Position numbers and translations under genes: made by a program. A stretch of 30,674 bases of DNA from a virus (lineage: Duplodnaviria; Caudoviricetes), in IMG/VR virus record IMGVR_UViG_3300042510_000016, positions 1 through 30,674 of that record. One strand, written 5' to 3'. The stretch's first letter is position 1, and every line of letters begins with the position of its first letter. Shown piece by piece: positions 7,530 through 30,674 of the stretch. A model generated the notes under the pieces. That model was not told the origin of the DNA, made no database searches, and worked only from the letters and a program-made list of their open reading frames with translations.

Positions 7530-8240
7530 TTAACTCCAATTAATTGTGACCCAACCGTTAGCTCCATTGCCTGGGGTGCCGGCGTTATAACCTCCAACAT
7601 TTACTCCGCCACCCCCTCCGACGGTTACAGGATAAGACCCTGCCCAGACAGGAAACCCAGAAGTTATTTGATGTGACCATTGTTGAGTAACTTTTCCTCC
7701 AGCGCCGCCATTACCACCGCTATATGCTGGTTGGAAGGCATAATTGAAATATCCGCTACCACCACCTCCACCAGCTCCTCCGCCTCCGGTTGTTACAGAT
7801 CCTCCTGATCCTCCACCATTAGTACCTGCACCACCGAAACTTGCAAATCCACCGCCACCACCACCTGTCCCAGCAGTAGCAGATAATCCATTAAAAGAAC
7901 TGTTGGCGCCACTGTTTCCTCCAGATCCGCCTTCGGCTATAGCAAAATAATATAAAAAAGCATAATAAGCGCCTTCACCACCACCACCGCCACCTGCCGC
8001 AACATTAGCAAAAACTGTCTGGTATGGATATACTAACCATGAATATGAACCAGGAGTGCTGTAAGTATTACTTCCTGCCGCTGGTTTCCCATAACCAGTA
8101 CTTATGGATATCGATCCAGAAGGAACACCAAAAAGATATCTAGTGTTAGCTTCTCCAATAGAAATTTCAGAAGTGGCATTTCCTTTTGTTATAGTTGCGA
8201 TATCTGAAAATGATATTTGTCCGCTAGATGGTAATGCCAT
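7530..8240 (-). CDS. Glycine-rich fibre-tip / adhesin-like protein (236 aa)
   Basis: N-terminus MALPSSGQISFSDI; several poly-Gly segments (AGGGGGGEG, GGGGGGF, GGGGAGGGGGSG) separated by aromatic-rich stretches; translationally coupled to the S74 fibre gene. The architecture recalls T-even gp38 adhesins (analogy only). Confidence 0.65.
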   Translation of the reverse strand: MALPSSGQISFSDIATITKGNATSEISIGEANTRYLFGVPSGSISISTGYGKPAAGSNTYSTPGSYSWLVYPYQTVFANVAAGGGGGGEGAYYAFLYYFAIAEGGSGGNSGANSSFNGLSATAGTGGGGGGFASFGGAGTNGGGSGGSVTTGGGGAGGGGGSGYFNYAFQPAYSGGNGGAGGKVTQQWSHQITSGFPVWAGSYPVTVGGGGGVNVGGYNAGTPGNGANGWVTINWS

Positions 8241-10573
8241 TATTTACCTCTTTTTAATTCGTCTACTTCATTTTTGAGGTCTTTGATTGCTTCAATTAAC
8301 AAAGCCACAATTCTATCATATTTAACCGCCTTAGTGCCGTCTTCTTTAGTTGCAACTACTTCAGGCAAAACCTTTTCAATGTTTTGAGCAATAACGCCGA
8401 CATCATGTCTACGGATAAAGTATCCATCTTCACCACCACGAGCATCCATGAATTCCTGGGTCCAATCAAATTCTACGCCGTCAACAGCCATAACTTTTTC
8501 AAGAGCGTTTTCAATTGGTTTTACATTTTCTTTGAAGATGGCGTCTGAAGTATAATAAGCTGTGATGTTATTATTTGCTCTAATTTCGCCAGCAGTTCCG
8601 GAAGCAGCAGTACCAACACCAATTGAATTAAATTGTGAGTTCTGCGAAGTAGAAGTGAATGTTGCAGCACTTCCATCAATCGAGACGCCTGTGAGAGTTT
8701 GAGACCCTGTTGTTCTATTAATTGTCAGTGAAGTAGTGCCAATAAACATTGTTTGGTTTGTTGCTGCAGCGCCGATCTCACCAAGAGTCCATGAAACAGC
8801 AGCAGATCCATCAACAGATTTACCAGTTGATCCGATAGTAATAGTTCTTGACGTACCCCATGTAGCAGTTGTAATAGCAGCAGAACCATTGAAGGCGGAA
8901 CCATTAATGTTTCTAGAAGTAGCCAATGTGGCTGCACTGTTGACGTTAAGATTTCCTTCAGTCTTACCATAAGCTGTAGTGGCATTATTGACGTTAAGAT
9001 TTCCTTCAGTCTTACCATAAGCTGTAGTGGCATTATTGACGTTTAGTGTAGCCTCAGTTTTACCATAAGGACCAGTACTATTACCAATTAAAGTCGTTCC
9101 TACGTAATATGATACTGCATTAACGACTGTAGCATTGGCAGTAAATGCAGTTCCAACGGTATGACTAGCAGCGTTCATAGTTCCAGTGTGATAAACACCA
9201 GTGGCATTGGCAATAAGAGATGTTCCAACAGTATGTGACGAACCGTTAACTACACCAGCGTAAACTGGTAGATAAGCAGCGACATTGGCGTTTAAGGTAG
9301 AATTAAGCTGATAGGAAGCAGCAGCTGTTCCTCCTAGATTTGTGGAGTTATTAGCTGTTAATGCGCTATTTACGTTTAGAGTGCCTTCAGTTTTACCGTA
9401 AGCTGTTGTGGCATTATTAACGTTCAGATTGCCTTCAGTTTTACCATAAGCTGTTGTGGCATTATTGACGTTTAGTGTAGCCTCAGTTTTACCATAAGCA
9501 TACGTAGCATTATTAACGTTAAGATTGCCTTCGGATTTACCGCTAACAAATGACGTATTATTAGCAGATAAAGTTCCAATATATGTTGCATTAACATGAA
9601 CGCCAGTGGCATTTACTACAGTACCAGTTCCTGGAGTAACAAACAATCCTAAAGAATTGGCAGTAATACCATTATTAGCTAGAACAGAAACCGTTCCGGA
9701 TGTCGTGAATGGACCGCCAGTTAGACCGTTACCAGTGCCAACAGAAGTTACAGTTCCTGCATTAACGTCATCAGCAGCCCAATAAGTGGCTGTACCATTA
9801 GAGTGAAGAACTTGGCCAGCGGTTCCGTAAGTGCCATTAGCAGAAAGGCCAGAACCTAATATTAGGTTAGCATTATACGTATAAACACCAGATATTGTAA
9901 ATGCCGCAGTGGTATTAACAACATTAGCTGGCATTCGAGCGTATGGAAGAACGCCTGTGGTTATATTAGTAGCATTGGTGTAAAAAGAACCAGGTTGGCT
10001 GTTTAAATTAGTGGCATTAGTTGCCTGCACAGCACTGTTAACATTTAGAGTAGCTTCTGTTTTACCATAAGGTCCAGTAGCATTACCGATTAATGTTGCG
10101 CCAACATAATATGAAACAGCATTAACTACTGTAGCATTAGCAGTAAAGGCAGTTCCAACAGTATGACTAGCAGCATTAACGATACCAGTGTAAACACCAG
10201 TAGCGTTAGCAACAGTAGAAGTGCCAACAGTATGACTAGCAGCATTAACGATACCAGTGTAAACACCAGTAGCGTTAGCAACAGTAGAAGTGCCAACTGT
10301 ATGACTAGCAGCGTTCATAGTTCCAGTATGATACACACCAGTAGTATTGGCGATAAAAGTTGTTCCGACAGAAACACTAGTGCTGGTATTAGCGAAACCA
10401 ACAATCGTTGTATTTCCGAGATAAACATCCCCTATAGTAGAAAGACGATGGGTGGGAGACGAATTATTGATGCCCACATTACCTGTAGCGGTAACAGTAA
10501 CTGCTGTTCCTAGTAAGGTGGTATTTGAGCCTGTTTCTAGACCGTTCTTTACGACGAAATTTTTATCTGCCAT
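8240..10573 (-). CDS. Tail fibre protein with C-terminal intramolecular chaperone (peptidase S74-like) domain, 777 aa
   Basis: C-terminus TSDAIFKENVKPIENALEKV..GVEFDW..DVGVIAQ..VLPEVV..VKYDRIVALLIEAIKDL is the S74 pattern. The shaft is repeat-rich and the N-terminus is MADKNFVVKNGL. Confidence 0.88.
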   Translation of the reverse strand: MADKNFVVKNGLETGSNTTLLGTAVTVTATGNVGINNSSPTHRLSTIGDVYLGNTTIVGFANTSTSVSVGTTFIANTTGVYHTGTMNAASHTVGTSTVANATGVYTGIVNAASHTVGTSTVANATGVYTGIVNAASHTVGTAFTANATVVNAVSYYVGATLIGNATGPYGKTEATLNVNSAVQATNATNLNSQPGSFYTNATNITTGVLPYARMPANVVNTTAAFTISGVYTYNANLILGSGLSANGTYGTAGQVLHSNGTATYWAADDVNAGTVTSVGTGNGLTGGPFTTSGTVSVLANNGITANSLGLFVTPGTGTVVNATGVHVNATYIGTLSANNTSFVSGKSEGNLNVNNATYAYGKTEATLNVNNATTAYGKTEGNLNVNNATTAYGKTEGTLNVNSALTANNSTNLGGTAAASYQLNSTLNANVAAYLPVYAGVVNGSSHTVGTSLIANATGVYHTGTMNAASHTVGTAFTANATVVNAVSYYVGTTLIGNSTGPYGKTEATLNVNNATTAYGKTEGNLNVNNATTAYGKTEGNLNVNSAATLATSRNINGSAFNGSAAITTATWGTSRTITIGSTGKSVDGSAAVSWTLGEIGAAATNQTMFIGTTSLTINRTTGSQTLTGVSIDGSAATFTSTSQNSQFNSIGVGTAASGTAGEIRANNNITAYYTSDAIFKENVKPIENALEKVMAVDGVEFDWTQEFMDARGGEDGYFIRRHDVGVIAQNIEKVLPEVVATKEDGTKAVKYDRIVALLIEAIKDLKNEVDELKRGK
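8940..9043. repeat. Perfect 48-nt tandem repeat (2 copies plus a partial) encoding GKTEGNLNVNNATTAY
   Basis: A unit starting ttgacgtt recurs at 8940, 8988 and 9036. A second, more diverged cluster lies at about 9370-9530. Confidence 0.9.
10155..10297. repeat. Perfect 69-nt tandem duplication encoding TSTVANATGVYTGIVNAASHTVG
   Basis: 10155-10223 is identical to 10224-10292 by eye. Confidence 0.9.
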
Positions 10574-10606
10574 GGTTCCCTGTCCCCTATGGTGTTGTTT
10601 TTTTAA

Positions 10607-10614
10607 TATTTAGT
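10607..10614 (-). promoter_or_regulatory. Candidate late promoter variant ACTAAATA upstream of the 777-aa fibre gene
   Basis: Lies 34 nt upstream of ATG 10573 and just downstream of a terminator, where a new promoter would be needed. Matches 6 of 8 positions of TATAAATA. Confidence 0.55.
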
Positions 10615-10659
10615 CATATCGAAGGTTAGATTGCTCGCTCTATGTTGTAAATAGATTTA

Positions 10660-10686
10660 TAAAATGCCGTTCTTCAAGAACGGCAT
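10660..10686 (-). terminator. Intrinsic terminator
   Basis: The minus strand reads ATGCCGTTCT-TGA-AGAACGGCAT followed by TTTATAAAT, a few nt after the stop of the 59-aa ORF. Perfect 10-bp stem with a short U-tract. Confidence 0.7.
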
Positions 10687-10693
10687 CACAGTA

Positions 10694-10873
10694 TTATTTA
10701 ATGACTTTATCTGCAAGAGGACCAGCTGGAGGTGACGCTCTTAATTGTGCGTCAGCCTGTTTCTGGACTTCTGTGAAAGTTATCAGAACAGTTTCTAATG
10801 GTAGTTTAGAAAGCCCAAGCATCACAATATTTAGCTGTTCAATCGTCAATTCAAGTTTAACATTCTTATCCAT
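10694..10873 (-). CDS. Small hypothetical protein, 59 aa (not in ORF track)
   Basis: MDKNVKLELTIEQLNIVMLGLSKLPLETVLITFTEVQKQADAQLRASPPAGPLADKVIK*. Strong SD TAAGGAG upstream; fills the gap between neighbouring genes and is followed by the terminator. Confidence 0.85.
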   Translation of the reverse strand: MDKNVKLELTIEQLNIVMLGLSKLPLETVLITFTEVQKQADAQLRASPPAGPLADKVIK

Positions 10874-10892
10874 AATTTACTGTCTCCTTATT

Positions 10893-11252: not shown

Positions 11253-11279
11253 TTTATCCTCTTAGATTATGTTTTAAGT

Positions 11280-11287
11280 TATTTATT
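11280..11287 (-). promoter_or_regulatory. Candidate late promoter AATAAATA
   Basis: Matches 7 of 8 consensus positions, overlaps the stop codon of the 81-aa ORF, and lies 28 nt upstream of ATG 11252. Confidence 0.5.
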
Positions 11288-12112: not shown

Positions 12113-12116
12113 CTAG

Positions 12117-12527: not shown

Positions 12528-12552
12528 TATTTTGATTTCTCCTATTGAATTT

Positions 12553-13694: not shown

Positions 13695-13786
13695 TTAGTT
13701 CTCCTTATCTATTAATTATTATATAAACTCTGAAAAAAACAGTTCAAGGGTCGCCAGAAAAATATATAAAGCATTTAATTATAATC

Positions 13787-14182: not shown

Positions 14183-14191
14183 ATTATCCTC

Positions 14192-17100
14192 TTATAGAAC
14201 TACCCAATTCGAGCCAGTTGGAATGGTGACTGACACACCTGTATTTATGGTGACTGGCCCAACAGTCACGGCATTGTAGTTTGTCGTGATAGTGTAGTTA
14301 GCAGCAATGGTTTTGGTCATTTCAAGGAATGGGTATGATACCTGTCTAACGACACCAGCTAATACGGCAGATGTTGCAGCATTGGGGTCAACATAGTAGT
14401 TAGTATCATTGTGATCATAAAAAATAGGCGCTCGCCACGAATTAGTTGATGTACCTATACCAAGAGTCCAGATACCTGTACCAACAGCGGATTGTGTAAC
14501 ACCATTGATCATAAACAAGGCTTGATGATTTAAACCAGCTTTGGACTGTGGATTGTTTCCTGCAGCGCCGTGATCTGGATTATAAGACCAACCAATACCA
14601 TAAAAAGCGCCATATGTATTTGAAGAGCCGCCATTGGTTAGTATATAAGATGAACCCATAGCAAATATTGCCTGAGTTTGAGCAGGATCGTAAACGCCAA
14701 TTAGACCTTTTCTACCATTATTGAATTGTATATTACCTAAAGTGTTTAAACCTGTTGCACCAGCAGGATCACAGTAATAAGCAGTGTTGTCAGAATCATA
14801 GAAGTATGGGGCTCTCATACTACCAGCTGCTTGTGTATACGCAGCGCTAAGATCGCATCTAGCATTTGTTCTACTATAAGAAATAATACCACCACCTGAT
14901 GCAGAATATAGACCCCATGCAGTGCCATTATTAAACAAATAGGCAGCACTTTGACCAGTAAAGTTAGCAAGCAACTGACCTTCTGACGCTGTTGTTGCGG
15001 TGGCAAATGAGGATCCTTGAGCGCCAGTAGCAGTTGTAGCATTACCAGCAATGTTCATCGTCTGGCCGCTGATAAATGTAGCAACCTTAGCAGCAGTAGC
15101 AGAACGATGATAGTTGTCACCAAACTTACCCATTAGATATGTTAGCGTACCAGTACTTACATCATCGCTTGAATTGTGATAAGAAGCGTTAATATAACGA
15201 CCGTTAAAATCACCATTGGCATCTCTTGTTACAACTGTTGAACCTGTTGCTGTTGTTGATGCTGCAGAAAGACCAAAAGCGAAAGTCGCATTGTTGGCTG
15301 TGATTGTTGCAATATAAGAAGCATTGACAGACAGAGTTCCCGTAGTGGTAATTGTACCGCCAGAAAGACCTGTACCCCCAGCAACAGAAGTTACTGTACC
15401 ACCAGAATTGTCATCAGCTGCCCAATAAACTGCTGAACCATTTGAATGTAATACTTGTCCTGCAGTTCCTAAACCACCATTAGCACTTATACCAGCAGTT
15501 GTTGAAATGACAAGATTACCGCCAAGAAAAGTTGTTCCATTGACTGATAGTTTATGAGCAGGTGCAGTATTACCAATACCAGTATTGCCATTACCATCTA
15601 TATTAAATACAGAATCACCGCCAGCCCTTGAAATCTGAAATGAGTTGGCTGCTGGAGAACCTAGATATACTGGATTAACACTAGTGCCGTAGAACAAACC
15701 AAGAGCATATGCTTCGTTTGATGGTCTTAATAGGGTTCTACCTCCAGTGACTGCTAGTCTACCGTCAGGAGTAGTAGTTCCAATACCAACGTTACCACTA
15801 TTTAATACAGTAATATATTCACTAAACGTATTCTGTGATGTATTAGATGCTGGATATGCACCTATTCTAACAGCTACAGTGTCTGATTTTCTACCATAGA
15901 GGGCTGTAGCCCAAGCGGTACTTTGTAAAGAACCAGTGTCTCCATAATGAAGTTCTGCACCAAAACCTCTATCTGTCCAAAATGTGATACCAGCATTTCT
16001 AGCAGTATTTGCTGTCAAAGCACCGCTTTGTACCTGAACACCAAAAGTTGAGTTAGCAATAAAGTTAGATCCAACTGTGTGACTAGCCGCATTAATAATA
16101 CCAGTGTAAACACCAGTTGAGTTGGCTATTGTAGAAGTTCCAACTGTATGACTGGCTGCGTTCATCGTTCCAGTATGATAAACACCAGTAGCATTAGCAA
16201 TGAACGATGTGCTAACAGTGTAAGACGATCCATTAACAACACCAGTATATACCGGTAAATAAGCAGCGATATTCGCATTCAACGTAGAATTTAACTGGTA
16301 TGAAGCTGCAGCGGTACCACCAAGGAATGAAGCGTTATTGGCTGATAATGTTCCAATATATGTTGCATTAACATGAACGCCAGTAGCATTTACTACAGTA
16401 CCAGTTCCTTGTGTTACGAATAAACCAGTAGTATTTGCTGTTATACCGCTGTTTGCTAAAACAGATACTGTGCCTGTTGTTGTAATAGCGCCGCCTGTTA
16501 GACCGTTGCCAGTTCCAACAGATGTAACAGTGCCAGAGTTATCATCAACCCCCCAATAAGTGGCTGTACCATTAGAGTGAAGAACTTGACCAGCAGTACC
16601 AAAACCGCCATTTGATGAAAGACCAGAAGAACCTAAAACAATATTAGCATTAAATGTTGTGACCCCTGTTATTGTTCCACCACCGGCATCAAAATTAGCA
16701 GCCCATACCATGGCAGTTGTACCAATAGTATCCGTGGTCTTGAAATCATTATCAAACAATCTACCACCATTGGTCGTTCCTTCATCAACAGCGACCAGAG
16801 CCGAAGCAATTTTACTTGATGTATTAGCGTCGTTTGCTCTTGTTAGAGTCCATGCATAGACTGCCGCAGAACCTGTATTTGAAACATAATATATACCATT
16901 TTGATTGGCTGAAGTTTGGTTTTTAACTAATAGTCTGTCATTTAACGCTAAAGTAATACCATCTTGTGCAGGTAATGCTACAAGCCCACCAGTCAAAACT
17001 TGTGTAGTAGCAGAAGCTGCTGATAAATCGGCAGTAGTAGCAGCACGACAAGATTTCTTGAAAGTGGCCTCTGGTAGATACGCCATATCTATCTGAGTAA

Positions 17101-17842
17101 ATGCAGGAACTGTACCGTTAGAAGCTAAAACAAAGGTGTTAGTTCCCGCCGATGTAATAGCCATGCCAGTAGCATTGGAATAAACAACGCCGCCAGAAAC
17201 CGGAGTTAATGAAGAATTTGTGCCGCCTCTGGCAGCAGAAAGAGTGCCAGTAGAAATGTTAGTAGCATTAGTGTAATATGCTGCTGCTTGTCCGCCGAGA
17301 TTAGTAGAGTTATTAGCTGTTAATGCGCTATTGACGTTCAGATTACTTTCTAATTTACCATAAGGGCCAGTGTTATTACCAATAAGCGTAAACCCAACGT
17401 AAAAAGATCCAGCATTAACAACAGTGGCGTTGGCAGTAAAAGCTGTTCCAACAGTGATAGATGAACCATTAACTACACCAGTATATACACCAGTAGAGTT
17501 GGCGATAGTTGATGTGCCTACGGTGTGAGATGAACCATTAACAACGCCAGTGTATGTTGGTAGATAAGAAGCTATATTGGCATTTAATGTAGAGTTTAAT
17601 TGATATGAAGCAGCTGCGGTACCGCCAAGATTGGTTGAGTTATTAGCAGTTAAAGCAGAATTAACATTAAGATTACCCTCAGTCTTACCATAAGGACCAG
17701 TAGAGTTAGCGACCAATGTAGAATTAGAATAAACGCCAGTGGCATTGGCTGTGAGTATGGTAAAAGTCGAATTCGCACCAATTCTGGCGTTTGTCGATTC
17801 AATATAACTATTGACTGTAGAATTACCTACAAATAAGGTCAT
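14192..17842 (-). CDS. Large tail fibre-like protein (1216 aa)
   Basis: Mosaic of fibre modules: KKSCRAATTA..DGITLALNDRLLVKNQT..NGIY, GQVLHSNG..YW, GTVTSV..G.GL.GG, GNVGIGTTTP, two RAP.FYD....YY.DP repeats. ATGA overlap with the upstream fibre gene. Confidence 0.85.
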   Translation of the reverse strand: MTLFVGNSTVNSYIESTNARIGANSTFTILTANATGVYSNSTLVANSTGPYGKTEGNLNVNSALTANNSTNLGGTAAASYQLNSTLNANIASYLPTYTGVVNGSSHTVGTSTIANSTGVYTGVVNGSSITVGTAFTANATVVNAGSFYVGFTLIGNNTGPYGKLESNLNVNSALTANNSTNLGGQAAAYYTNATNISTGTLSAARGGTNSSLTPVSGGVVYSNATGMAITSAGTNTFVLASNGTVPAFTQIDMAYLPEATFKKSCRAATTADLSAASATTQVLTGGLVALPAQDGITLALNDRLLVKNQTSANQNGIYYVSNTGSAAVYAWTLTRANDANTSSKIASALVAVDEGTTNGGRLFDNDFKTTDTIGTTAMVWAANFDAGGGTITGVTTFNANIVLGSSGLSSNGGFGTAGQVLHSNGTATYWGVDDNSGTVTSVGTGNGLTGGAITTTGTVSVLANSGITANTTGLFVTQGTGTVVNATGVHVNATYIGTLSANNASFLGGTAAASYQLNSTLNANIAAYLPVYTGVVNGSSYTVSTSFIANATGVYHTGTMNAASHTVGTSTIANSTGVYTGIINAASHTVGSNFIANSTFGVQVQSGALTANTARNAGITFWTDRGFGAELHYGDTGSLQSTAWATALYGRKSDTVAVRIGAYPASNTSQNTFSEYITVLNSGNVGIGTTTPDGRLAVTGGRTLLRPSNEAYALGLFYGTSVNPVYLGSPAANSFQISRAGGDSVFNIDGNGNTGIGNTAPAHKLSVNGTTFLGGNLVISTTAGISANGGLGTAGQVLHSNGSAVYWAADDNSGGTVTSVAGGTGLSGGTITTTGTLSVNASYIATITANNATFAFGLSAASTTATGSTVVTRDANGDFNGRYINASYHNSSDDVSTGTLTYLMGKFGDNYHRSATAAKVATFISGQTMNIAGNATTATGAQGSSFATATTASEGQLLANFTGQSAAYLFNNGTAWGLYSASGGGIISYSRTNARCDLSAAYTQAAGSMRAPYFYDSDNTAYYCDPAGATGLNTLGNIQFNNGRKGLIGVYDPAQTQAIFAMGSSYILTNGGSSNTYGAFYGIGWSYNPDHGAAGNNPQSKAGLNHQALFMINGVTQSAVGTGIWTLGIGTSTNSWRAPIFYDHNDTNYYVDPNAATSAVLAGVVRQVSYPFLEMTKTIAANYTITTNYNAVTVGPVTINTGVSVTIPTGSNWVVL

Positions 17843-20800: not shown

Positions 20801-21981
20801 GAAGAACCTAGTGTAACATCGCCGCCTAAGAATGTTGTACCATTAACCGATAGTTTATCGGTGGGATCCGTATTACCAATACCAATATTACCACCAAGAG
20901 GGTTAAGGATAATTGAATAATATACAGCACCACTTGCTGAATAACCAGACTGAATCCATTGATGAAAATTTGATTGTTGACCAAATGCTAGATAATTTCC
21001 GCCAAAACCGCCCAAATAAGCATAAGCATTAGATTTAAAATCACCAGCAGAAGCATTCGTTTGACCGTTAATATTTGTAAAGGTTGCTGTATTAGGAGAA
21101 CTAATTGTTATACTATTTGTAATAATTGCTGATGAATTGATAGTAGCATTAGATGTAGAACTTCCAACAACTAATCTATTAGCAACATATGTTCCAAGAT
21201 AGCCAGTTTCGAAATAAGACGATTGACCATTTAGACCAATAGCAAACCCTTCGCCAGAAGTATTAGCTGTAAGAATATCAATGGTGTTACCAGTATAAAC
21301 CCATTTAGTAACATTATTGGTGTTTCTACCAATTCTCCAGTTAGCGTCCGCAACACCGTTGAAATAAAGAGAATTATTAGTAGCTAATCCGATTTCATCA
21401 GAGAATGAAACGTTGGCGCTAAATGTGTGCGTATTTGTCCAAACATATTGCGCTGCTGTGTTTGTAACTAGAGCAGCTAATGTTGACCAATATGTAGATG
21501 AACCATTAGATAATAGAGCTTGACCAGCAGTACCAGTAGTTCCGTTTGCTGTAAGAGCTCCAACATTAGCAGAGAAATTTACAGGTACAGAAAAGTTTAG
21601 ATTGCTCGTAATACTATTAGCAAATATACTCCAAACCGCTCTTGAACCGCCAGCAGTATTAGTTGTATAAAATACAAAATTATCATCGTTCTGTTGTATG
21701 AAAGATACAACATTTCCATTAAGTGTTGAGAAATTTAATTTGACGTTATTCTTGAAATGAACGCCTGAGTTGTTAGAAAATACAGTGTTAGCAACGCTAA
21801 GAGTGTTAGAAACATTTACATTTGTATTATTAGCGCCGATTTCCCAAGTATTAGAACCATCAGAAGAATAGAGTCTTCTATCAGTTAGGTTTAAAGCCAA
21901 TTCACCGATAGTTATGTCAGATGTAGTGGGAACTTTCCCTGCGACCGATGAACGGCGCAGTTTAAAAACTGTATTTGCCAT
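17839..21981 (-). CDS. Large tail fibre-like protein (1380 aa)
   Basis: N-terminal KLRRSSVAGKVP..GELALNLTDRRLY domain, GNVGIGN repeats, a central Ala-rich repeat stalk, and C-terminal RWANVYTGDLHLSNE..GNWTIQEG. Confidence 0.87.
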   Translation of the reverse strand: MANTVFKLRRSSVAGKVPTTSDITIGELALNLTDRRLYSSDGSNTWEIGANNTNVNVSNTLSVANTVFSNNSGVHFKNNVKLNFSTLNGNVVSFIQQNDDNFVFYTTNTAGGSRAVWSIFANSITSNLNFSVPVNFSANVGALTANGTTGTAGQALLSNGSSTYWSTLAALVTNTAAQYVWTNTHTFSANVSFSDEIGLATNNSLYFNGVADANWRIGRNTNNVTKWVYTGNTIDILTANTSGEGFAIGLNGQSSYFETGYLGTYVANRLVVGSSTSNATINSSAIITNSITISSPNTATFTNINGQTNASAGDFKSNAYAYLGGFGGNYLAFGQQSNFHQWIQSGYSASGAVYYSIILNPLGGNIGIGNTDPTDKLSVNGTTFLGGDVTLGSSGLSANGSYGSFGQSLLSNGSSTYWATAGATLNANNTDTQTYYIGLANGSSGAWTNAVVSTTKLYYVPSTGKLDASIVNASSFTVGTAFTANATVVNAVSYYAGSTLIGNTTGPYGKTEINLNVNNSITSNTASYLGNSSGTTANFVSWITGNSATAYTNAVSYTDGKILTANAAITGNAATAYTNSVSYTDSKIATANSAITGNAATAYTNAVSYVDGLKLDSVTNTSITFIPVANTVKNAYDRAIDANTRAASAQTAAAAAYTNAVSYTDGKILTANSAITGNAATAYTNAVSYTNGLRLDSVTNTSILFIPVANTVKNAYDRAIDANTRAASAQSAAISAYSNAVSYTDGKILTANAAITGNAATAYTNAVSYVDGKILTANAAITGNAATAYTNSVSYTDGKILTANAAITGNAATAYTNAVSYVDGKILTANAAITGNAATAYSNATVFASNATNINTGTLAEARLPYRMDQNVRTTDSPTFSTLTLTGSLNISGNVNVVGANTLSVVDNFIYLNSNNSIDNEDTGIVANYNSTGNSLGYAHTGIFRDASDGTWKVFDGYKPEPDANVNIDTTNTTFQIANFQANTLYLGNTSTNWLVSNTSGVYHTGTVNAASHTVGTSTIANSSGLYTGVVNGSSITVGSSFVANSTTTKTPVLFLDRSAAAARGINWYNSGYTAWQDYMAPAGASQGWTGTVTAPSGTYVTSWARRSFIENNALYGWTWESGTATSTTPSVVAELASATGNFRTIGSIYSGSTLIGNTTGPYGKTEATLNVNSAVTVTTNTSSNTFTIGTGTYFVSNGNVGIGNSSPVHKLSVNGTGYFGGTVNATGAISTSGAAMNITGGANPYLYLTDGTYGGYLQIASSLLNLYHANAISFSPGASTSTYLASNGNVGVGNTTPADKLVVAGNIMPSGDNSYNLGSASLRWANVYTGDLHLSNERTRGNDIDGTTGNWTIQEGESELYIINNKNGKKFKFKLEEMQ
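19455..20345. repeat. 26-aa (78-nt) coding tandem repeats YTDGKILTANAAITGNAATAYTNAVS, interrupted by two copies of a longer unit 240 nt apart
   Basis: The repeats are visible in both protein and DNA. The segments starting at 19801 and 20041 are near-identical. Boundaries are approximate. Confidence 0.88.
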
Positions 21982-22519: not shown

Positions 22520-24055
22520 TTAGAAAGATCCCCCATCAAGGATGTCGTAAAGTAATGCTGTTCCATTGGATTGAAGAACATAACCACTAGTACCAAGTCC
22601 TAGCTTACGGAATCCATTAGTAGAGTTAGCTACGATAATATCTTCCTGAGTATACGTATTCAATCCAGTACCACCAGAATTTCCTAATAGTGGACTTGAT
22701 AGAGTAAGAGTGTTAGCTGCTATAGCAACATTTAGACTGCTATTAGCGGTAATTGTAATACTAGTAGCGTTAGATGTGAAACCAGCAGACTGAATATAAG
22801 TCTGAAGGATAGCAAGAGTCCAACCGTTAGCAGAAGTATTAACGACGTTGTTACCAACTAGCTCTTGTTCTGAATTGGTAAAGAGTTTATATATACCGCC
22901 GTCAGATGCATCACGGAACAGACCAGTGTGTCTTGCGGTAACACCGTCAAAATAATTAGCAGCAAAACCAATATCCAGAAGATCACTAGCATAATTATTA
23001 CCAGCCAAATAAATCATTGGATCGGAAACAACCAATGAATTTACGTTAGTAGTTACAACGTTACCAGAAATTATAAGGTCGCCAGAGATTTCAACTTTAC
23101 CGTCGAAATAACCAGTTGTAGAATGCAAATTAGATGCGTGAATTTCGTTCCAACGTAGGGTGTTGTTACCTACGTTGTAAGTATTATTAGCAGATGGAAT
23201 TAGGTTGCTGCTGACTAGAGCACCAACATTAAGTCTATCTGAGGTACTATCACCGATAACTGTATTACCATTAAGAGTTGTATTGCTTGTTACAACTAGA
23301 TTGGTATTAACTGTCATATTATTGACAGTAGCCGAAGCGTTAACAGCGGTAATAGTTGGTCCGTTAAACACAATATGAGTAGTGTTTACGGTGAAATTAG
23401 CAGCCGTTCCAATAGTTGCTGATAGAGCGTTTACTGTTCCGGAAGTGTAGAAACCAGTATTGTTTGCAATAGACTGACCATTAACATTCAAACCAGCTGA
23501 TGTAATTCTGGTATTGATGGTGTTATTACCAACAGTGATTATTGTAGAGTTAGATAGAACACCACCTGTGCCGGTAGTTGTATTGCCAGTATTAATAGAA
23601 GTTGCATTAATATTGGTAACTAAAAGAGTGTTACCGATGAATAATGTATTAGTAGTCTTGTTAAATGTAAATCCAGCAACACCATTAGCAACGCCAGAAT
23701 CATTAAACTGAACGTAAGTGTTAGTTCCAGATGTACCTGTTCCCCAATATACTGCAGTACCATTGGTTACAAGAACTTGACCATTAGAACCAGGAGAACC
23801 ATTTGCGACAAGAGATGTTATTACTGCATTAGCGACAATAACTTTATCAATTTCACCAGTAGCATTAGCAACTAGAGCATGACTGTTGGTTAGAACACCT
23901 GGATACTGAGCGCCACCAATTCTAAGAACACCAGAACCGTCTGGGAGACCAATGTGAAGCGTATTAGAGGCTTGAGTAAAGGCTAATTCGCCGTTTGAAA
24001 GACCTGAAACTGTAGCATTAGCTACAGATCTTTTAATTTGAATCTTGTTGGCCAT
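22520..24055 (-). CDS. Fibre-like virion protein (511 aa)
   Basis: N-terminus KIQIKRS..GELAF; shares the HTG(L/I)FRDASDG module with the 1380-aa fibre; ends ILDGGSF. Confidence 0.82.
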   Translation of the reverse strand: MANKIQIKRSVANATVSGLSNGELAFTQASNTLHIGLPDGSGVLRIGGAQYPGVLTNSHALVANATGEIDKVIVANAVITSLVANGSPGSNGQVLVTNGTAVYWGTGTSGTNTYVQFNDSGVANGVAGFTFNKTTNTLFIGNTLLVTNINATSINTGNTTTGTGGVLSNSTIITVGNNTINTRITSAGLNVNGQSIANNTGFYTSGTVNALSATIGTAANFTVNTTHIVFNGPTITAVNASATVNNMTVNTNLVVTSNTTLNGNTVIGDSTSDRLNVGALVSSNLIPSANNTYNVGNNTLRWNEIHASNLHSTTGYFDGKVEISGDLIISGNVVTTNVNSLVVSDPMIYLAGNNYASDLLDIGFAANYFDGVTARHTGLFRDASDGGIYKLFTNSEQELVGNNVVNTSANGWTLAILQTYIQSAGFTSNATSITITANSSLNVAIAANTLTLSSPLLGNSGGTGLNTYTQEDIIVANSTNGFRKLGLGTSGYVLQSNGTALLYDILDGGSF

Positions 24056-24084
24056 ATTAAATGGTGCTCCTGTAAATTTTTATC

Positions 24085-24092: not shown

Positions 24093-24094
24093 AA

Positions 24095-24373: not shown

Positions 24374-24375
24374 TT

Positions 24376-24705
24376 TTATCTCGTAACTTGAGGCGTAACT
24401 GTAATGATACCTTCGACAATTCTAGAAATCACTGAACCGTCGTCAATTTCTACGTCATAAACATATCTACCAGCCACCAAGTTGCTTGTCTGGTTGGCAG
24501 TCAAAGATAAGGTCACAACCCCTGATGTAGTGTTTATAGAAGTTGAGAAAACTGCAGCTGCATTAGATGAGGTATACCACTTTCTTACTTGAGAATTCGC
24601 CGAATAACCTATTAGGTTCAAAATGTCTCCATTTTCGTCTGTTAAAGACAAATCCGTAGAGAAAGTAGTTCCTTGATCGATTACTAGATTAGCTTTTGTG
24701 GCCAT
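24376..24705 (-). CDS. Conserved T4-like structural protein (109 aa), Ig/BppU-N-like beta sandwich suspected
   Basis: ANLVIDQGTTF, AGRYVYDVEI and RIVEGIITVTPQVTR motifs, familiar from environmental T4-like phages. Confidence 0.75.
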   Translation of the reverse strand: MATKANLVIDQGTTFSTDLSLTDENGDILNLIGYSANSQVRKWYTSSNAAAVFSTSINTTSGVVTLSLTANQTSNLVAGRYVYDVEIDDGSVISRIVEGIITVTPQVTR

Positions 24706-27700
24706 TATCCTACAATTGTCCTAACGTATTTAACTGTGGTATTAGAAGAAACAGGTGTGAATCTCAACGCAACGTGAGAAACGTTTGGAGCAACGAAACT
24801 AAATGTTCCTACGTTTGTGTTTGTTGTAATAGTAGCAAATTCTGTCATATATCCTGTGGCACGATCATGTGTTGTTAGAATCTTTGACATATAACGGTTA
24901 TTAGCTACGTTGTCAACAACACTGACAATATATTCAGCTGCTGGATAGCTAACCATTGAGTAAGCATCAATTTCTTGAGTGGTTGTACCGGTAGTAGTAA
25001 TTGATGCATTTGTAGTAGCTGGAGCAATAATACCCCATTGACCGTTTGCGTTCAGATAATACTGACCAGAAGCGATAGCTGCTGAATTTGGAGTAGTTAT
25101 AGAAAGATTTACAGTTGAATTGGAAATCTTAATAGTTGAAGAATTCGCAACCAAATTAGCTGTAGCACTACCAATAAAAATATCGGTCAACACATCAATC
25201 GAAGCAGTGTTTATGCCGGTAGAATTAGCAGTAAACGAAGTTCCGATATTCAATGATGTGGCGTTAACAATACCAGTATAAACACCAGTAGAGTTAGCAA
25301 TGGTTGACGTTCCAACAGTATGGCTAGCTGCATTAATATTAGTAACATAAGCGCCGGAAGAATTGACAACCGAAGAACCGCCAACAGTTATTGTATTACC
25401 AAAAATGGCGCTCTGAGTTACGTTTGCATTAGTAACCCAAAGGACAGCCCATCTATATGATGTGTTACCTAGACTATAAGTGTCATTTGTTGCTGGGACA
25501 ACGTCAGCGGAAGATACACCAGCATATGTTAGATTACCAGAAACCTGTAGATCGCCAAGAACGTTTAGCTTACCAGCCACATTAGCATAAGTACCGTTGA
25601 ATTGAGCGTTTCCGCCAATAGTCATAACACCAGTGTGATTTATGGTAGTGGCGTTAGCGACAAAAGAAGAACCAACAGTATGAGAAGAACCATTGACAAC
25701 TCCGGTATAAACACCAGTGGAATTGGCTATTGTTGAGGTTCCGACAGTATGGCTAGCAGCGTTTACAGTTGTAGTATAAACGCCAGTAGCATTAGCAATT
25801 GTAGAAGTTCCAACTGTGTGTGCCGCTGCATTTACAGTTGTGGTATAAACACCAGTAGCATTAGCAACAGTGGAAGTTCCTACAGTGTGCGCAGCTGCGT
25901 TCATCAAACCAGTGTGATAAGCACCAGTAGTGTTAGCAATAAAAGAAGAACCAACAGTAACAGAAGAACCATTGACTATTCCAGTATAAACGCCAGTAGC
26001 ATTAGCAATTGTAGAAGTTCCAACAGTAATAGAAGAACCGTTTACAACGCTGGTGTAAACACCAGATGAATTTGCTATTGTAGAAGTTCCGACTGTGTGG
26101 CTAGCTGCATTAACAGTTGGTGTATAAACTCCGGATGAGTTAGCAACAGTTGCTGAACCGTTGACATTCAAACCAGCAGAAGTAACAACAGTATTGATTG
26201 TGTTGTTACCGATTAGGAGTGTTGTACCATTAAGTAGCGATGCGCCCGCACCAGTTGTTACAGTTCCGGTAGTAAACGAAGCAGCATTAGCAGTTCCGGT
26301 ATAAACACCAGTAGAGTTAGCTATTGTTGCAGAACCATTGACGTTCAAGCCAGCAGATGTGACAACGGTGTTAATAGTGTTATTACCTAGGAATACAGTA
26401 GTTACGTTCTGAACGCTACCACCAGTTCCTATTGTCACATTACCTGCAGTAAACGAAGAAGCGTTAACAGTTGTGGTATAAACGCCGCTAGAGTTAGCAA
26501 TTGTGCTAGTTCCAACACTGTGCACCGCAGCATTAACTGTTCCTGTTGTCCAGAAGCCAGAAGTATTTCCGATTGTTGAAGATGTAACTTGAAGCGCAGT
26601 TGTATTGGCAGTAAATCCACCAGCGCCTGTTGTGATTACAGTGCTATTAACTAATGAAGTTCCAACAGTTAGGCTGATTGGGTCTAGATTAGCTGAACCA
26701 GAATTATTAGCCATAATAAGGCGATTAATGCTCTGGTCTGAATAAACAGTGGTGTTACCAACGAAGTATGAAGATGTATTAATCTGAATATTAGCAGCAA
26801 CTTTAACAACGCTAGTGTTGGCAGTTATACCGTTAGCCCCAGTAGTAATTACAGTGCTATTGACAACCGAAGTTCCTACTGTTAAGCTAACAGGATCTAG
26901 ATGAATTGACCCAACGCTATTAGCGATAGTAACACTGTTTGCATCCAAGATAGAATTAGCAGTAGTGTTACCAACAAAATATGTTGTTGTGTTAATCTGG
27001 ATATTGGCAGCCACCTTAACAACACTGGTATTAGCAGTTATGCCATTAGCACCAGTAGTAATCACAGTGCTATTAACGACAGAAGTGCCAACAATCAAAC
27101 CAATTGGATCTAGGTTAGCTGATCCGGAATTATTAGCAATAGTGAATCGATTTATGCTTTGATCAGAATAAACGCTGGCGTTACCAACAAAGTATGAAGA
27201 GGTATTGATCTGAATATTGGCTGCAATTTTTACTGCACTGGTGTTGGCAGTTATACCGTTAGCCCCAGTAGTAATAATAGTGCTATTAACTAGTGAAGTT
27301 CCGATAGTTAAGCTGATTGGATTTAGGTTAGCTGAACCAGTAGAATTAGCAATTCTTATTAAAGTAGCATTAGACAACGCATTTACGGTGCTGTTACCAA
27401 CGTCAACAGCTATAGCGTTTACTACGACATTAGAAGTTGCAACTGCAACATAGAATTGAGAAGTGTTTGCTACAACGTTTGAACCAACTGTAATAGCAGA
27501 AGTATTAGCAACTAAACCACCAGCGCCAGTTGTAATAATTGTGCTGTTGACTAGGGAAGTCCCTACAGCAAAACTTACTGGGGTGATATTAGCTGAAATA
27601 GTAGAATTTGCAACCTTCACTAACGAAGAATTAGCAAAAGTGTTTATGGTTGTATTACCAACAAGAATTGAACTAGAATTAGATAATACGTTTGTTGTTG

Positions 27701-28355
27701 TATTACCGATAACAATAGTTGATGTGTTCATAAACACATTTGCACCAACGGTCACAGCCTGTGTATTAGCAAAAAGGCTGTTAGAACCGACCATTGAAAT
27801 AGAAGTGCTATTTACTAAAGAATTGCCAATTGAAAGAGAATTATAATTCATTACAGCTAATGCAGCGCCATTTGTAATCTGCAATAGAGTAGAATTGGCT
27901 ATTGTATTGACAGTAGTGTTAGATCTGAAAAGTAATGTAGTGCTGTTAGCTATTAGATTGGTTGTGGCGGCACCAGTATGAGTTATGTATAGTTGGTTGG
28001 TATTAACAACGACATTAGAACCGACATAAACAGCATAAGTGTTTAGAGATTCAGAGTCCAAATAAGAATTTACTGTAGAATTACCAATAGAAATCGCCGA
28101 AGTGTTAACATATGTAAAGTTGTAAATATCTACACTGTTATTACCAATCAATAAAGAATTATTAACATGTGCTGTGGTGTTAATAACCAAAGAATCAGCA
28201 GTAAATTTACCAGTAATAGCTGCATTACCAGCTGCCGCATTAGAACCATTTGCTGTAACGGCCAACACTGAGAAAGTGTAAGCCAGTTCATTGGTTCTAT
28301 TACGCCAGAAATCAAAAGTGTTATTTGTTCCTACATTGGAAATATTTACTGTCAT
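24705..28355 (-). CDS. Large fibre-like virion protein (1216 aa)
   Basis: N-terminal NTFDFWRNRTNEL motif; nested 71-, 59- and 23-aa repeats; C-terminal beta domain (EIDAY..AEYIVSV..THD..YMTEFA..LRFTP). Confidence 0.85.
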   Translation of the reverse strand: MTVNISNVGTNNTFDFWRNRTNELAYTFSVLAVTANGSNAAAGNAAITGKFTADSLVINTTAHVNNSLLIGNNSVDIYNFTYVNTSAISIGNSTVNSYLDSESLNTYAVYVGSNVVVNTNQLYITHTGAATTNLIANSTTLLFRSNTTVNTIANSTLLQITNGAALAVMNYNSLSIGNSLVNSTSISMVGSNSLFANTQAVTVGANVFMNTSTIVIGNTTTNVLSNSSSILVGNTTINTFANSSLVKVANSTISANITPVSFAVGTSLVNSTIITTGAGGLVANTSAITVGSNVVANTSQFYVAVATSNVVVNAIAVDVGNSTVNALSNATLIRIANSTGSANLNPISLTIGTSLVNSTIITTGANGITANTSAVKIAANIQINTSSYFVGNASVYSDQSINRFTIANNSGSANLDPIGLIVGTSVVNSTVITTGANGITANTSVVKVAANIQINTTTYFVGNTTANSILDANSVTIANSVGSIHLDPVSLTVGTSVVNSTVITTGANGITANTSVVKVAANIQINTSSYFVGNTTVYSDQSINRLIMANNSGSANLDPISLTVGTSLVNSTVITTGAGGFTANTTALQVTSSTIGNTSGFWTTGTVNAAVHSVGTSTIANSSGVYTTTVNASSFTAGNVTIGTGGSVQNVTTVFLGNNTINTVVTSAGLNVNGSATIANSTGVYTGTANAASFTTGTVTTGAGASLLNGTTLLIGNNTINTVVTSAGLNVNGSATVANSSGVYTPTVNAASHTVGTSTIANSSGVYTSVVNGSSITVGTSTIANATGVYTGIVNGSSVTVGSSFIANTTGAYHTGLMNAAAHTVGTSTVANATGVYTTTVNAAAHTVGTSTIANATGVYTTTVNAASHTVGTSTIANSTGVYTGVVNGSSHTVGSSFVANATTINHTGVMTIGGNAQFNGTYANVAGKLNVLGDLQVSGNLTYAGVSSADVVPATNDTYSLGNTSYRWAVLWVTNANVTQSAIFGNTITVGGSSVVNSSGAYVTNINAASHTVGTSTIANSTGVYTGIVNATSLNIGTSFTANSTGINTASIDVLTDIFIGSATANLVANSSTIKISNSTVNLSITTPNSAAIASGQYYLNANGQWGIIAPATTNASITTTGTTTQEIDAYSMVSYPAAEYIVSVVDNVANNRYMSKILTTHDRATGYMTEFATITTNTNVGTFSFVAPNVSHVALRFTPVSSNTTVKYVRTIVG
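26620..27330. repeat. 71-aa (213-nt) coding tandem repeat, about 3.3 copies
   Basis: The L(D/N)P(I/V) anchor recurs at about 26681, 26894, 27107 and 27320, a 213-nt period. Confidence 0.85.
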
Positions 28356-28358
28356 TTA

Positions 28359-28574
28359 TTAACTTCTTTTTAAGAGTTGGCCGAGCATATTCTTTATCTC
28401 TTCTAAATCTTGTTCCACCTTTTGAATTCTTTCTGAGTTCTTCATACCGTCTATAAACATCTGTTTTTGTTTTTTATACGCAGAAAGTTTTTGATTATCG
28501 ACATTAAGTATAGCCCCGCTGGTTGGGTCTTTAACGATTCCTTCGAAATCTGTTTTATAATATTTATTTTCCAT
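28359..28574 (-). CDS. Conserved small phage protein (71 aa)
   Basis: GIVKDPTSGAILN motif plus a C-terminal coiled-coil; directly follows the VrlC-like gene. Confidence 0.75.
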   Translation of the reverse strand: MENKYYKTDFEGIVKDPTSGAILNVDNQKLSAYKKQKQMFIDGMKNSERIQKVEQDLEEIKNMLGQLLKRS

Positions 28575-28577
28575 TTT

Positions 28578-30674
28578 TTACATCTGTAATGCTAGAGCTC
28601 TTAAATCATCGATAATAGGCACTTTTGAGCTATCATTTGATTTGAGAACGATTTTAATTTGGAATTGTTTGAACGAAGTATATGTCTTACCGTCCAAACT
28701 AGAATAAGTCAACCCTAAAGGACTCTCGAAATAAACATTAGCCCCAGAAGCGTTTGAACTCCATGGAGTTCCTACAGTCAAATATGTGTTATTAGCAACA
28801 GAAACAATTATCTGCGAATCGTTGGCGACTTGAACAATATTTCCAGGTCTAAAGTCTGTAATGAAAGTTGTTCCGTTTCCGATAACAGCGTTATTGGTTG
28901 TCGATACAGTAACATTACCTGTTAATTGAGTGACGTTTTGTCTAGACATGAAAGCTGTAGTCGGAGGGAAAGCCAAATAAGCAGTCTGCGCAGTAGCATT
29001 AGAACTAGGTGCTGATTCTAGAGTTAGATTAGTATTGCTAGTTATACTAATAATCTTTCTGCTGTAAATAGTGTTAATAGTAGTGTCATTTGGTATAGCA
29101 TACATAAACCAACCAGGACTCAACTCAGTTGTAAATAGAGTGCTTGTGCCAACGACTGTTGTGCAAGCAGTATTGCATGTTACTGTTCCTGTCATTTTAA
29201 GAGCAGGATAGTTTGAAGAGGTTGTAAATGTATATTCTTTAAAATCGCTTGGGTTACTTGGATCTGAATAATAATCCAAAGAACTATTGATCAAAGGAGT
29301 CCATGTTTTCTGAGAAATTGGTTCTGGATCTTCGCCATTAAGGAACTTGACCCAAACTTCTACTTCTGAACCAACTGGTCTGAACGCAGTTAGAACAACT
29401 TGAATGTCCTCTGCATCTTGACCTGCAGCAAGGCTGACAACCTTTGATACATATTTTGATTTCGCATCACCAGAATTAAAGAATTCGTCGTATTGGAAAT
29501 TGACCGGATCAATTTCATTTTTAATTACTAACTGCTGATCTCTGACAGTGTCAATAGCAGGAGAAAGGAAAGCACTATCACTGACCATTCTAGCTTTATA
29601 AGTGAACGATTTAGCGCCACTCATGCTAGTAATTTCGTTTGATCTACTAGCAACTATTCTTTCTCTGTCGTAGAATTCAGATTCATAACCAGGAGTTACT
29701 CTGTTGTCCAAAGTATCAACCGAGTATGTATTACTTGTACCTCTATAATAGAGGTCCAAAGTTGTTCCTGCAGGGGTAATAAATGCCAACTGTGGAACAA
29801 CAGCGTCTACTACTGGATTGTATAATGTGCCACTATTAGCGTATGCAATCAGAGTTGTGTTATTTGGGCTTGAAATCGTTGTGTTACTAAATCTATGAAT
29901 CTGAACATAAGAGTTACCGCTAAAATTACCAGTAGAAGAATCGCAATATAGAATGTTCTTAACAGCATCATAATAATTGATTGTAGCATAAACACTAGTA
30001 TTGACCGTTCCACCAGTAGCATTTGATGTTGAATTTGTTGATTTGAATACGACATCTCCGGAAATGATACTTGCACTAGTATTGACGTAACCTACGTTAT
30101 ATACCGAAACATATTCGTTATTACTGTTGTAGAATACAGCCTGACCTTCATTGGTCTTAAAATTTGCTCTATATAAATTGAACTTTACGTATTCTTCCTG
30201 AAGAGCAGTCCATTGTTTTTCGGTGGCGCCATAAAAAGCTGTCCCCACTACGGGCTGACTGTACACTTGATAACCAGTTTCAATATCAACGTCTCCGAGA
30301 TTACAAGTCCATACATGATAATCTGGGTCGTTTGCGTCAGGTCTTACCACGAAAGCATATGTTTTGCCATTCATCAAAAAAACTGGAGATTGAAAAGTAA
30401 ATGTAGTCGGATTTGTAGCATCTGCGCTAATGTTTATTTCATCGTAACTTTTATGAACTTTGGAAAATGGTAAGATCACATCGCCATTTGGGTATCCATT
30501 TTCAGTTTCACAAAGATATACTGTTACACCATTTTCTCTTATCTGTGATTTTTGTTTGAAGAAAAGTCTTAGAGCTGTGGCGTATATTCCTGCTTCTCCA
30601 TTTGGAGTATTAATTGTCAACGCCTGCGCTAACGGTTCTAAAAAGAACAACCAAATTGGAGGAGGTGGAGGTGG
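28578..30674 (-). CDS. C-terminal 698 aa of a large baseplate-associated structural protein (VrlC/DUF4815-like); 5' end lies outside the window
   Basis: The frame is open to the right edge (PPPPPPIWLFFLEPLAQAL...). Motifs EPLAQ (cf. DPLAQTF), T.FTFQSPVFL, KFNLYRANF, LSPAID, KYVSKVVSL and FKQFQIKIVL..VPIIDDLRALAL. Confidence 0.8.
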   Translation of the reverse strand, partial: PPPPPPIWLFFLEPLAQALTINTPNGEAGIYATALRLFFKQKSQIRENGVTVYLCETENGYPNGDVILPFSKVHKSYDEINISADATNPTTFTFQSPVFLMNGKTYAFVVRPDANDPDYHVWTCNLGDVDIETGYQVYSQPVVGTAFYGATEKQWTALQEEYVKFNLYRANFKTNEGQAVFYNSNNEYVSVYNVGYVNTSASIISGDVVFKSTNSTSNATGGTVNTSVYATINYYDAVKNILYCDSSTGNFSGNSYVQIHRFSNTTISSPNNTTLIAYANSGTLYNPVVDAVVPQLAFITPAGTTLDLYYRGTSNTYSVDTLDNRVTPGYESEFYDRERIVASRSNEITSMSGAKSFTYKARMVSDSAFLSPAIDTVRDQQLVIKNEIDPVNFQYDEFFNSGDAKSKYVSKVVSLAAGQDAEDIQVVLTAFRPVGSEVEVWVKFLNGEDPEPISQKTWTPLINSSLDYYSDPSNPSDFKEYTFTTSSNYPALKMTGTVTCNTACTTVVGTSTLFTTELSPGWFMYAIPNDTTINTIYSRKIISITSNTNLTLESAPSSNATAQTAYLAFPPTTAFMSRQNVTQLTGNVTVSTTNNAVIGNGTTFITDFRPGNIVQVANDSQIIVSVANNTYLTVGTPWSSNASGANVYFESPLGLTYSSLDGKTYTSFKQFQIKIVLKSNDSSKVPIIDDLRALALQM

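Follow-up and report, generated by a model that had tools for sequence, protein, structure and literature searches.

The window analyzed here, the whole 30,674-nucleotide stretch of IMG/VR record IMGVR_UViG_3300042510_000016 (a record made up of this 30.7-kb fragment alone), is the structural region of a T4-like phage. Its long genes, all on the minus strand, encode gp13-gp18, part of a VrlC-like protein and five putative fibres that are long and rich in Asn, Ser and Thr; small accessory genes are also present. Its virion proteins are enriched in Asn that follows a small residue (Ala, Gly or Ser; the small-Asn motif). Among T4-like phages this candidate acceptor motif was limited to virion proteins and went with a viral gene of the family PHROG 1574, a predicted glycosyltransferase, Ochrobactrum phage OspM_OC being a clear exception. 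Our preferred explanation, held at a little short of an even chance, is that the PHROG 1574 product glycosylates virion Asn at the small-Asn motif, as a phage-encoded, chlorovirus-like N-glycosylation. Somewhat less probable is the broader proposal that PHROG 1574 represents a new type of GT-A-fold enzyme that N-glycosylates proteins in the cytoplasm, present in many aquatic T4-like phages and in an unrelated family of small phages and acting on hundreds of small-Asn sites per virion. The window phage would itself carry PHROG 1574, which lies far from this region in its relatives.

To analyze the distribution of Asn sites in the window, N-X-S/T tripeptides (X not Pro) were counted in each protein. 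A first-pass annotation of this DNA had reported about 80 such sequons in the 1216-amino acid (aa) protein at 24705-28355, about 23 in the 511-aa protein at 22520-24055 and about 19 in the VrlC-like fragment. These counts were correct: 81 of 155 Asn (45 expected, z 6.9), 23 of 69 (z 2.4) and 20 of 58 (z 2.9), respectively, lie in N-X-S/T, and the first protein is the motif-densest product of the window. Three further fibres had been described as similarly dense, which was true of the proteins at 8240-10573 (37 of 88 Asn, z 4.2) and 14192-17842 (44 of 120, z 3.4) but not of the 1380-aa fibre, whose 47 sequons in 166 Asn are explained by composition (z 1.2 raw, z 2.0 after repeat collapse). The internal controls were as low as claimed (gp17 2/38, gp13 0/14, gp14 1/17, gp15 2/17 and a 258-aa protein 0/7), although they prove little because these proteins are S/T-poor and only 0.5-5 sites were expected.

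A stricter test was applied to the seven large structural proteins, with repeats collapsed and sequences shuffled locally over 25 residues. Ser or Thr at N+2 was observed 228 times vs 151 expected (z 7.6), confirming an excess beyond composition and repeats, and N-x-T and N-x-S were the top two among 400 i,i+2 pairs; N-x-V/I/A was found 134 times vs 160 expected. Two of the proposed control patterns were flat, N+3 (153 vs 153) and D-x-S/T (39 vs 37), whereas the +1 position, which had been named as a control whose enrichment would count against the idea, was also raised (205 vs 155, z 4.9). N-[ST]-[ST] had a z of 9 in the window. Pro at X was seen twice in the window (1.6 expected), and 57 times vs 66 in the pool of motif-positive phages described below. 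By a local-window measure the window scored 1.47, higher than every other scored locus (0.74-1.38), and N-X-S/T was 1.3-1.5-fold enriched in the window and its closest relatives.

Sites with a small residue before the Asn account for the entire excess in the window: [A/G/S]-N-x-S/T was found 122 times vs 52 expected and N-x-S/T in other contexts 107 times vs 102.5, and small-N-x-[not S/T] was at chance (145 vs 144). The window motif thus reads as a canonical sequon because Ser or Thr at +2 is strong in its subgroup. The word common to the relatives is A-N-T/V/S/G: A-N-T was enriched 3.6-4.4-fold in motif-positive cultured relatives (DLP6 4.1, Cr30 3.7, phiM12 4.4), in which the N-X-S/T ratio was 1.09 in DLP6, 0.94 in phiM12, 1.02 in RHph_I1_18 and 1.23 in Cr30. 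The proposal that canonical N-X-S/T is the sequon was therefore not supported, since the excess occurs only after A/G/S and is mostly missing in motif-positive cultured relatives; with little or no excess there, N-X-S/T was also rejected as a clade-wide marker.

These results bear on the idea that a GT41 enzyme of the HMW1C/ApNGT type, from phage or host, modifies canonical N-X-S/T. The role of +2 S/T in the window and closest relatives agrees with it, as does a match to PF13844 (GT41) in Caulobacter vibrioides, the host species of Cr30. On the other hand, no excess was seen without a small residue at -1, the motif-positive isolates, whose hosts span four genera, for the most part show no excess of N-X-S/T, and PF13844 was found in none of 20 related records (three of them at least 90% complete) while the positive control matched. 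The expected GT41/HMW1C-type enzyme was thus not recovered, and we give this idea very little chance of being correct. PF18071 (HMW1C_N) was found in 0/5 records, with its control likewise unmatched. Like the proposed phage enzyme, HMW1C and ApNGT are soluble and glycosylate Asn inside the bacterial cell, in the cytoplasm, and ApNGT reads N-X-S/T; they differ in that the phage motif requires a small residue at -1 and can generally dispense with S/T at +2. GT41 enzymes have a GT-B fold, vs the GT-A fold predicted for PHROG 1574.

The spread of the motif was determined in 79 random T4-like loci drawn by a VrlC pattern (80 were fetched with flanks, one being too short), and a record was called motif-positive at A-N z >= 2.2 and [AGS]-N-[ST] z >= 2.3. 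Twenty of the 79 loci passed this rule; the score splits in two, with most of the others near 1. The pooled positives prefer ANT, ANV, ANG, ANS and SNT, and S/T/A are mildly favoured at +2. The excess is specific to Asn: Asp shows no such context and the Asp counterparts of the motif are not enriched. In G005, an uncultured relative, A-N and A-N-T occurred at 2.0 and 2.7 times expectation in structural proteins and at 0.93 and 0.98 in non-structural proteins, in agreement with the earlier suggestion that the enrichment is limited to virion proteins.

The same folds are found with and without the motif among T4-like phages, and in gp18, VrlC, gp8 and gp6 most sites belong to a single lineage (motif columns seen in a single lineage: 43/69 in gp18, 55/74 in gp8). 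Motif sites of gp18 fall in variable segments (conservation 0.29 vs 0.51), and gp23 has 7-10 sites in motif-positives and 3-5 in negatives. It looks as if selection acts on the density of sites and not on fixed structural positions, and the alignment variability suggests that the motif Asn are surface-exposed. The major capsid protein gp23 of G005 (L102:835-2223) has several ANT/SNT sites in its variable insertion region, and the segment ahead of RALKAEY, conserved in other respects, also holds an A-N-T. A 328-aa protein encoded outside the structural block of G005 (L099:5978-6964) has 10 small-N-S/T sites in 31 Asn and a late-promoter-like site; it is likely an unannotated virion protein flagged by the motif. 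In DLP6 a baseplate wedge protein (L236:23408-27274) has a very long C-terminal Thr-rich repeat region with many ATNRST/T-type words.

The candidate genes in G005 were two family 4 glycosyltransferases (GT4), the first of them in a heptose-like cluster, and a 288-aa gene of no annotation adjoining gp45. The 288-aa gene is accompanied by the first GT4 in DLP6, Cr30, the phiM12 group, RHph_I1_18, OspM_OC and HTVC023P/027P. When about 220 G005 proteins were filtered by presence and absence, only the putative GT-A gene (the 288-aa gene) and a peptide-deformylase-like gene were found in 3/3 other motif-positive long records and 0/5 negative ones. The peptide-deformylase-like gene was set aside on function only, though it passed the same filter. 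Among random records no shorter than 50 kb, the GT4 (PHROG 2170, 'ANGGTE') was present in 3/3 motif-positive and 0/7 negative ones; it was ruled out as the motif partner, being missing from the complete motif-positive genomes G072 and G076 and from G078. The 288-aa gene is kept in complete motif-positive genomes where the GT4 is missing. It belongs to PHROG 1574, a mainly viral family annotated without function, and was found in G004 (a second uncultured relative), in G005 and in 6/8 close relatives searched, the two misses being 49% and 62% complete. In G007 the family matched in three pieces with stops between (G007:C1:110409-111372), perhaps reflecting an intron or other insertion.

Cellular best matches of PHROG 1574 were largely phage-like contigs in metagenome-assembled genomes (MAGs). 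Nine 130-200-kb contigs in bacterial MAGs with VrlC and the GT-A gene (L783, L791, L797, L800, L807, L808, L817, L818, L819) appear to be genomes of T4-like phages that were mis-binned. Some bacteria also have homologues, at about 38-40% identity; these were found in Rhodoblastus acidophilus and on environmental Actinomycetota/Mycobacterium contigs, where the gene upstream is conserved (L843, L847, L856; L855, L860).

The association of gene and motif was determined in records that were complete genomes or covered the gp45 locus. The motif rule was passed by 11/15 T4-like records with PHROG 1574 and 0/9 without (Fisher 6e-4, a p-value that, like the others, overstates the association because the records share ancestry). 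Records too short for the gp45 locus were excluded, as were G029 and G074 (motif-negative, no gene found, gp45 undetected); the ACG-2014f cyanophages, which have a 26% homologue, lay outside the scored set. The four misses form one marine clade with a pooled A-N-T of 127 vs 60 (z 8.5, 2.1-fold), whereas a clade without the gene, where testable, had 22 vs 25. Loss of the motif in this marine clade, around L154, had been considered and was dropped on its 2.1-fold A-N-T and the presence of the gene. Both gene and motif are present in the cultured Caulobacter phage Cr30 and Sinorhizobium phage phiM12, and HTVC008M, Melnitz and S-CAM9 are among the phages without the gene. Among predictions made before scoring, RHph_I1_18 was correctly called positive and XG4, S-CAM9 and Mosig negative. 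Of ten records chosen by the gene alone, eight passed (8/9 MAG contigs; OspM_OC negative; binomial 5e-4 vs 20/79), and the ninth MAG contig was a narrow miss (A-N z 4.5, A-N-T z 3.9); L867, which is motif-positive, was left out of this count, being on another contig than its gene. The first-pass idea that enrichment goes with a glycosyltransferase gene across relatives was thus supported for the glycosyltransferase-like PHROG 1574, with OspM_OC as an exception, and not for GT41.

The same pairing was found outside the T4 group. In an unrelated 35-kb phage family the gene was present in 8/8 near-complete records, and the structural proteins had 376 [AGS]-N-x-S/T sites vs 204 expected (z 12.7), led by ANV, ANA, GNT and GNV. 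By eye, the GT-A gene of these phages is the last of an operon that also encodes a radical-SAM-like protein and a pair of dehydrogenase/transketolase-like subunits (L484:7170-10735; L500; L530), which suggests that the operon makes an unusual sugar. Among 11 near-complete random small and medium phages, the nine without the gene showed no excess.

PHROG 1574 is predicted to be a GT-A glycosyltransferase. D82-x-D84, L-S-E-D and a C-terminal His were invariant in 42 sequences (40-72% identity to the first), the D-x-D being presumably metal-binding and the C-terminal ED/H residues presumably having GT-A roles. The predicted GT-A fold comes from a weak model (pLDDT 59, TM-scores about 0.3); its top Foldseek matches (E 1e-5 to 1e-3) were GT-A and related nucleotide-sugar enzymes, including GtrB, STIV A197 and a PBCV-1 capsid glycosyltransferase, and an ESM Atlas look-alike was a nucleotide-diphospho-sugar transferase. 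A sequence search of the GT-A protein against PDB gave no match. The gene stays beside gp45 in T4-like phages while its other neighbours change.

If PHROG 1574 glycosylates virion Asn, the enzyme would use a nucleotide sugar and a metal bound at the DxD. Its target would be Asn in exposed small-Asn turns of virion proteins ([A/G/S]-N-[T/S/V/A], in the window usually followed by S/T), modified in the host cytoplasm before or during assembly. In some lineages the neighbouring GT4 and heptose/sugar-pathway genes may extend the glycan, and the outcome would be a glycan coat on the virion. We infer every step beyond the co-occurrence.

The acceptor itself could differ. A sugar attached by the same enzyme to the Ser/Thr next to Asn, with small-Asn as a recognition or turn element and heptose as the candidate sugar where heptose genes are present, would fit the preference for S/T at +1 and +2, strong in the window, and the GmhA-, GmhB- and HddA-like enzymes that adjoin the GT4 of G005; known phage virion glycosylation is reportedly O-linked. 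On the other hand, A-N-V (300 vs 84), A-N-G (217 vs 78), A-N-A (183 vs 88) and A-N-N were enriched in the positive pool with no hydroxyl at +1, small-N-x-[not S/T] was 1.33-fold there, and the GT4 is missing from G072 and G076. The enrichment of words without a hydroxyl, ANV and ANG for example, makes Asn the preferred acceptor, and the O-linked alternative appears distinctly unlikely. Another Asn-directed process is very improbable, whether the motif Asn were hydroxylated by a phage 2-oxoglutarate (2OG)-Fe(II) oxygenase or bound by, for instance, a decoration protein or chaperone: G005 does encode an Asp/Asn beta-hydroxylase-like protein (PF05118), but no such gene survived the strict presence/absence filter and 2OG-Fe(II) oxygenases are annotated in the motif-negative HTVC008M.

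Several observations weigh against N-glycosylation by PHROG 1574. In OspM_OC the gene looks intact (54% identity), yet 5,730 residues showed no excess of the motif, and MW202825 alone showed none over 2,041 residues. AG-345-L05, with a 25% homologue, was predicted positive and failed the motif rule, and HTVC023P, which has a distant homologue, has a weak motif. The two random small phages with a distant homologue were mixed (G120 z 2.7; G124 z 0.7, not significant), and since the small-phage pattern was chosen after the 35-kb result its positives are circular; the motif and thresholds for T4-like phages were likewise chosen after the 79-locus data had been seen. VrlC trees were poorly resolved: negatives fall between the positives, which form two or more groups, but branch support is weak, and the independent contrasts are perhaps 3-5. 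The T4-like gene adjoins the sliding clamp gene gp45 in the replication block, often near DNA-hypermodification genes, and no late-promoter-like TAAATA was found within 90 nt upstream in any of 10 T4-like copies. Neither late expression nor structural-gene linkage was thus indicated for these copies, only the distant homologues of HTVC023P and AG-345-L05 lying among structural genes. DNA-glycosylating phage GT-A enzymes also match a PBCV-1 capsid enzyme best (bioRxiv 10.1101/2023.12.21.572611, available text), so that the GT-A fold does not reveal the substrate. The motif also fits beta-turn geometry, and the case for N-glycosylation is one of sequence pattern and co-occurrence.

Many of these points would be expected if the motif were a beta-turn cap (hydrophobic–small–Asn–S/T–S/T) of Asn-rich fibre repeats, if the PHROG 1574 lineages had inherited or exchanged such modules, and if the enzyme acted on DNA or a host surface polymer. 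Sites in the window do recur in strand-turn-strand repeats (IANSTGV, VGNSTVN), and the phage with the gene and no motif, the clamp-adjacent position with no late promoter seen and the small number of independent lineages all agree with this explanation. It does not account for the raised motif in non-repeat gp23, gp8 and gp18, folds common to the negatives, where the sites are scattered and unconserved, nor for the same gene-motif pairing in the unrelated 35-kb family. Asp, the usual substitute for Asn in turns, is not enriched, and the GT-A copies inspected by eye lack a polymerase-like C-terminal clamp tail. We therefore regard turns combined with shared ancestry as somewhat unlikely.

Two genomes with distant homologues and the G005 neighbourhood provide further context. 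HTVC023P (L239:40063-41863) and AG-345-L05 (L242:18865-21359) each carry a distant GT4 homologue next to a distant GT-A homologue, in a setting of structural or fibre genes; AG-345-L05 has 1.67-fold [AGS]-N-x-S/T (z 4.5) without A-N-T and perhaps uses a different sequon. Just upstream of the GT-A gene and gp45 in G005 is a DNA hypermodification-type cassette (L101:3726-10014: TET/JBP, GATase, amidoligase, amino acid:DNA transferase and P-loop kinase). The variable sugar cluster of G005, at 37.2-43.3 kb (L099:18215-L100:5310), encodes an S-adenosylmethionine (AdoMet) decarboxylase, methyltransferases, a cytidylyltransferase, GmhA- and GmhB-like proteins, a transaldolase, the GT4 and an HddA-like kinase; G004 appears to retain only part of it.

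Virion glycosylation as such is already known in chloroviruses and, reportedly, in mycobacteriophages. Freeman and colleagues are said to have described in 2023 mycobacteriophage-encoded glycosyltransferases that coat capsid and tail proteins, the sugars being O-linked and the enzymes encoded among structural genes; the present case differs in that the motif centres on Asn, the hosts are for the most part proteobacterial and the gene belongs to the replication block. In chlorovirus capsids N-glycosylation is found at NTGT, NTET, NTAT, NIPG and NVAT-type sites, according to the accessible text of a review (PMC9614988) that leaves the mechanism of Asn attachment open, and thus provide a precedent for NT/NV/NI sites (PMC9614988, PMC4691112, in part). 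PBCV-1 is alike in virus-directed Asn glycosylation at non-canonical sites, the phage motif having the same T/V preference at +1, and one of its capsid glycosyltransferases is among the predicted fold matches of PHROG 1574. Chloroviruses are unlike in being eukaryotic viruses, whereas the phage targets would be sheath, baseplate, fibres and capsid, and the likeness is drawn through motif and fold matches. Phage GT-A enzymes of DNA hypermodification share with PHROG 1574 the fold, similar structural neighbours and a location among DNA genes, but in the available text of bioRxiv 10.1101/2023.12.21.572611, which does not mention phiM12 or Cr30, they work with a cytosine methyltransferase and 5mYOX, whereas in small phages PHROG 1574 adjoins, by eye, sugar-pathway-like genes. 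A literature search covering few subscription journals and no supplements (including the accessible part of PMC4621102) turned up no account of bacteriophage particles glycosylated on Asn and none of what PHROG 1574 does.

If the preferred explanation is true, this would be the first bacteriophage N-glycosylation system findable in the searched literature, a bacterial-virus counterpart of the unexplained Asn-attachment step of chloroviruses and a model for viral Asn glycosylation at non-canonical sites. Many abundant aquatic phages would then use a phage-encoded enzyme to build glycoprotein particles (roughly one in four of the T4-like loci sampled has the motif), which would bear on particle stability, adsorption, host range and the reading of phage structures and proteomes. 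An unannotated phage family would gain a function, and glyco-engineering a soluble N-glycosyltransferase with another fold and sequon. Cr30 and phiM12, cultured and carrying gene and motif, make the proposal directly and cheaply testable.

The gp13-gp18 gene order and best cultured matches place the window in the T4-like phiM12/Cr30/DLP6 group. Among cultured phages DLP6, Cr30 and the phiM12 group come closest, with gp13 67% identical to DLP6 and 57% to Cr30 and gp17 55-57% to phiN3 and phiM12; gp17, the anchor for finding relatives, is 98% identical in G004 and 89% in G005. The 1216-aa protein at 24705-28355 had no match in PHROG or Pfam and none by tblastn against cultured phages. The features are listed in Table 1.

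Table 1. Features of the window, with N-X-S/T and small-Asn (small-N) site counts.
Feature	Coordinates	Strand	Remarks
VrlC-like baseplate protein, C-terminal part, cut by window end	28578..30674	-	phrog_358; 20 N-X-S/T, 22 small-N
1216-aa Asn/Ser/Thr-rich repeat protein, probably fibre	24705..28355	-	81 N-X-S/T (48 small-N); 48 A-N; Asp 1.6%
511-aa putative fibre protein	22520..24055	-	23 N-X-S/T, 15 small-N among them
1380-aa putative fibre	17839..21981	-	47 N-X-S/T in 166 Asn, near chance; 82 small-N, 36 A-N
1216-aa putative fibre, second	14192..17842	-	44 N-X-S/T, 23 small-N among them
777-aa tail fibre with C-terminal Peptidase_S74 chaperone	8240..10573	-	37 N-X-S/T
gp17, gp16, gp15, gp14, gp13	2671..7036	-	motif-poor internal controls
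gp18 tail sheath with large Asn-rich insertion	2..2605	-	22 [AGS]-N-[TVSAI] sites; 3-7 in six motif-negative orthologues

Near-identical blocks recur across different proteins of the fibre genes at 8240-28355 (e.g. ANATGVY, NSTGPYGKTEATLNVN), which suggests module shuffling among them. G005 also encodes a full-length PmoC/AmoC (L098:2301-3062, Pfam E 5e-109) with a late-promoter-like site upstream and is thus a pmoC-phage-type genome; pmoC is also carried by freshwater phages with predicted methanotroph hosts, according to the available text of PMC7674155.

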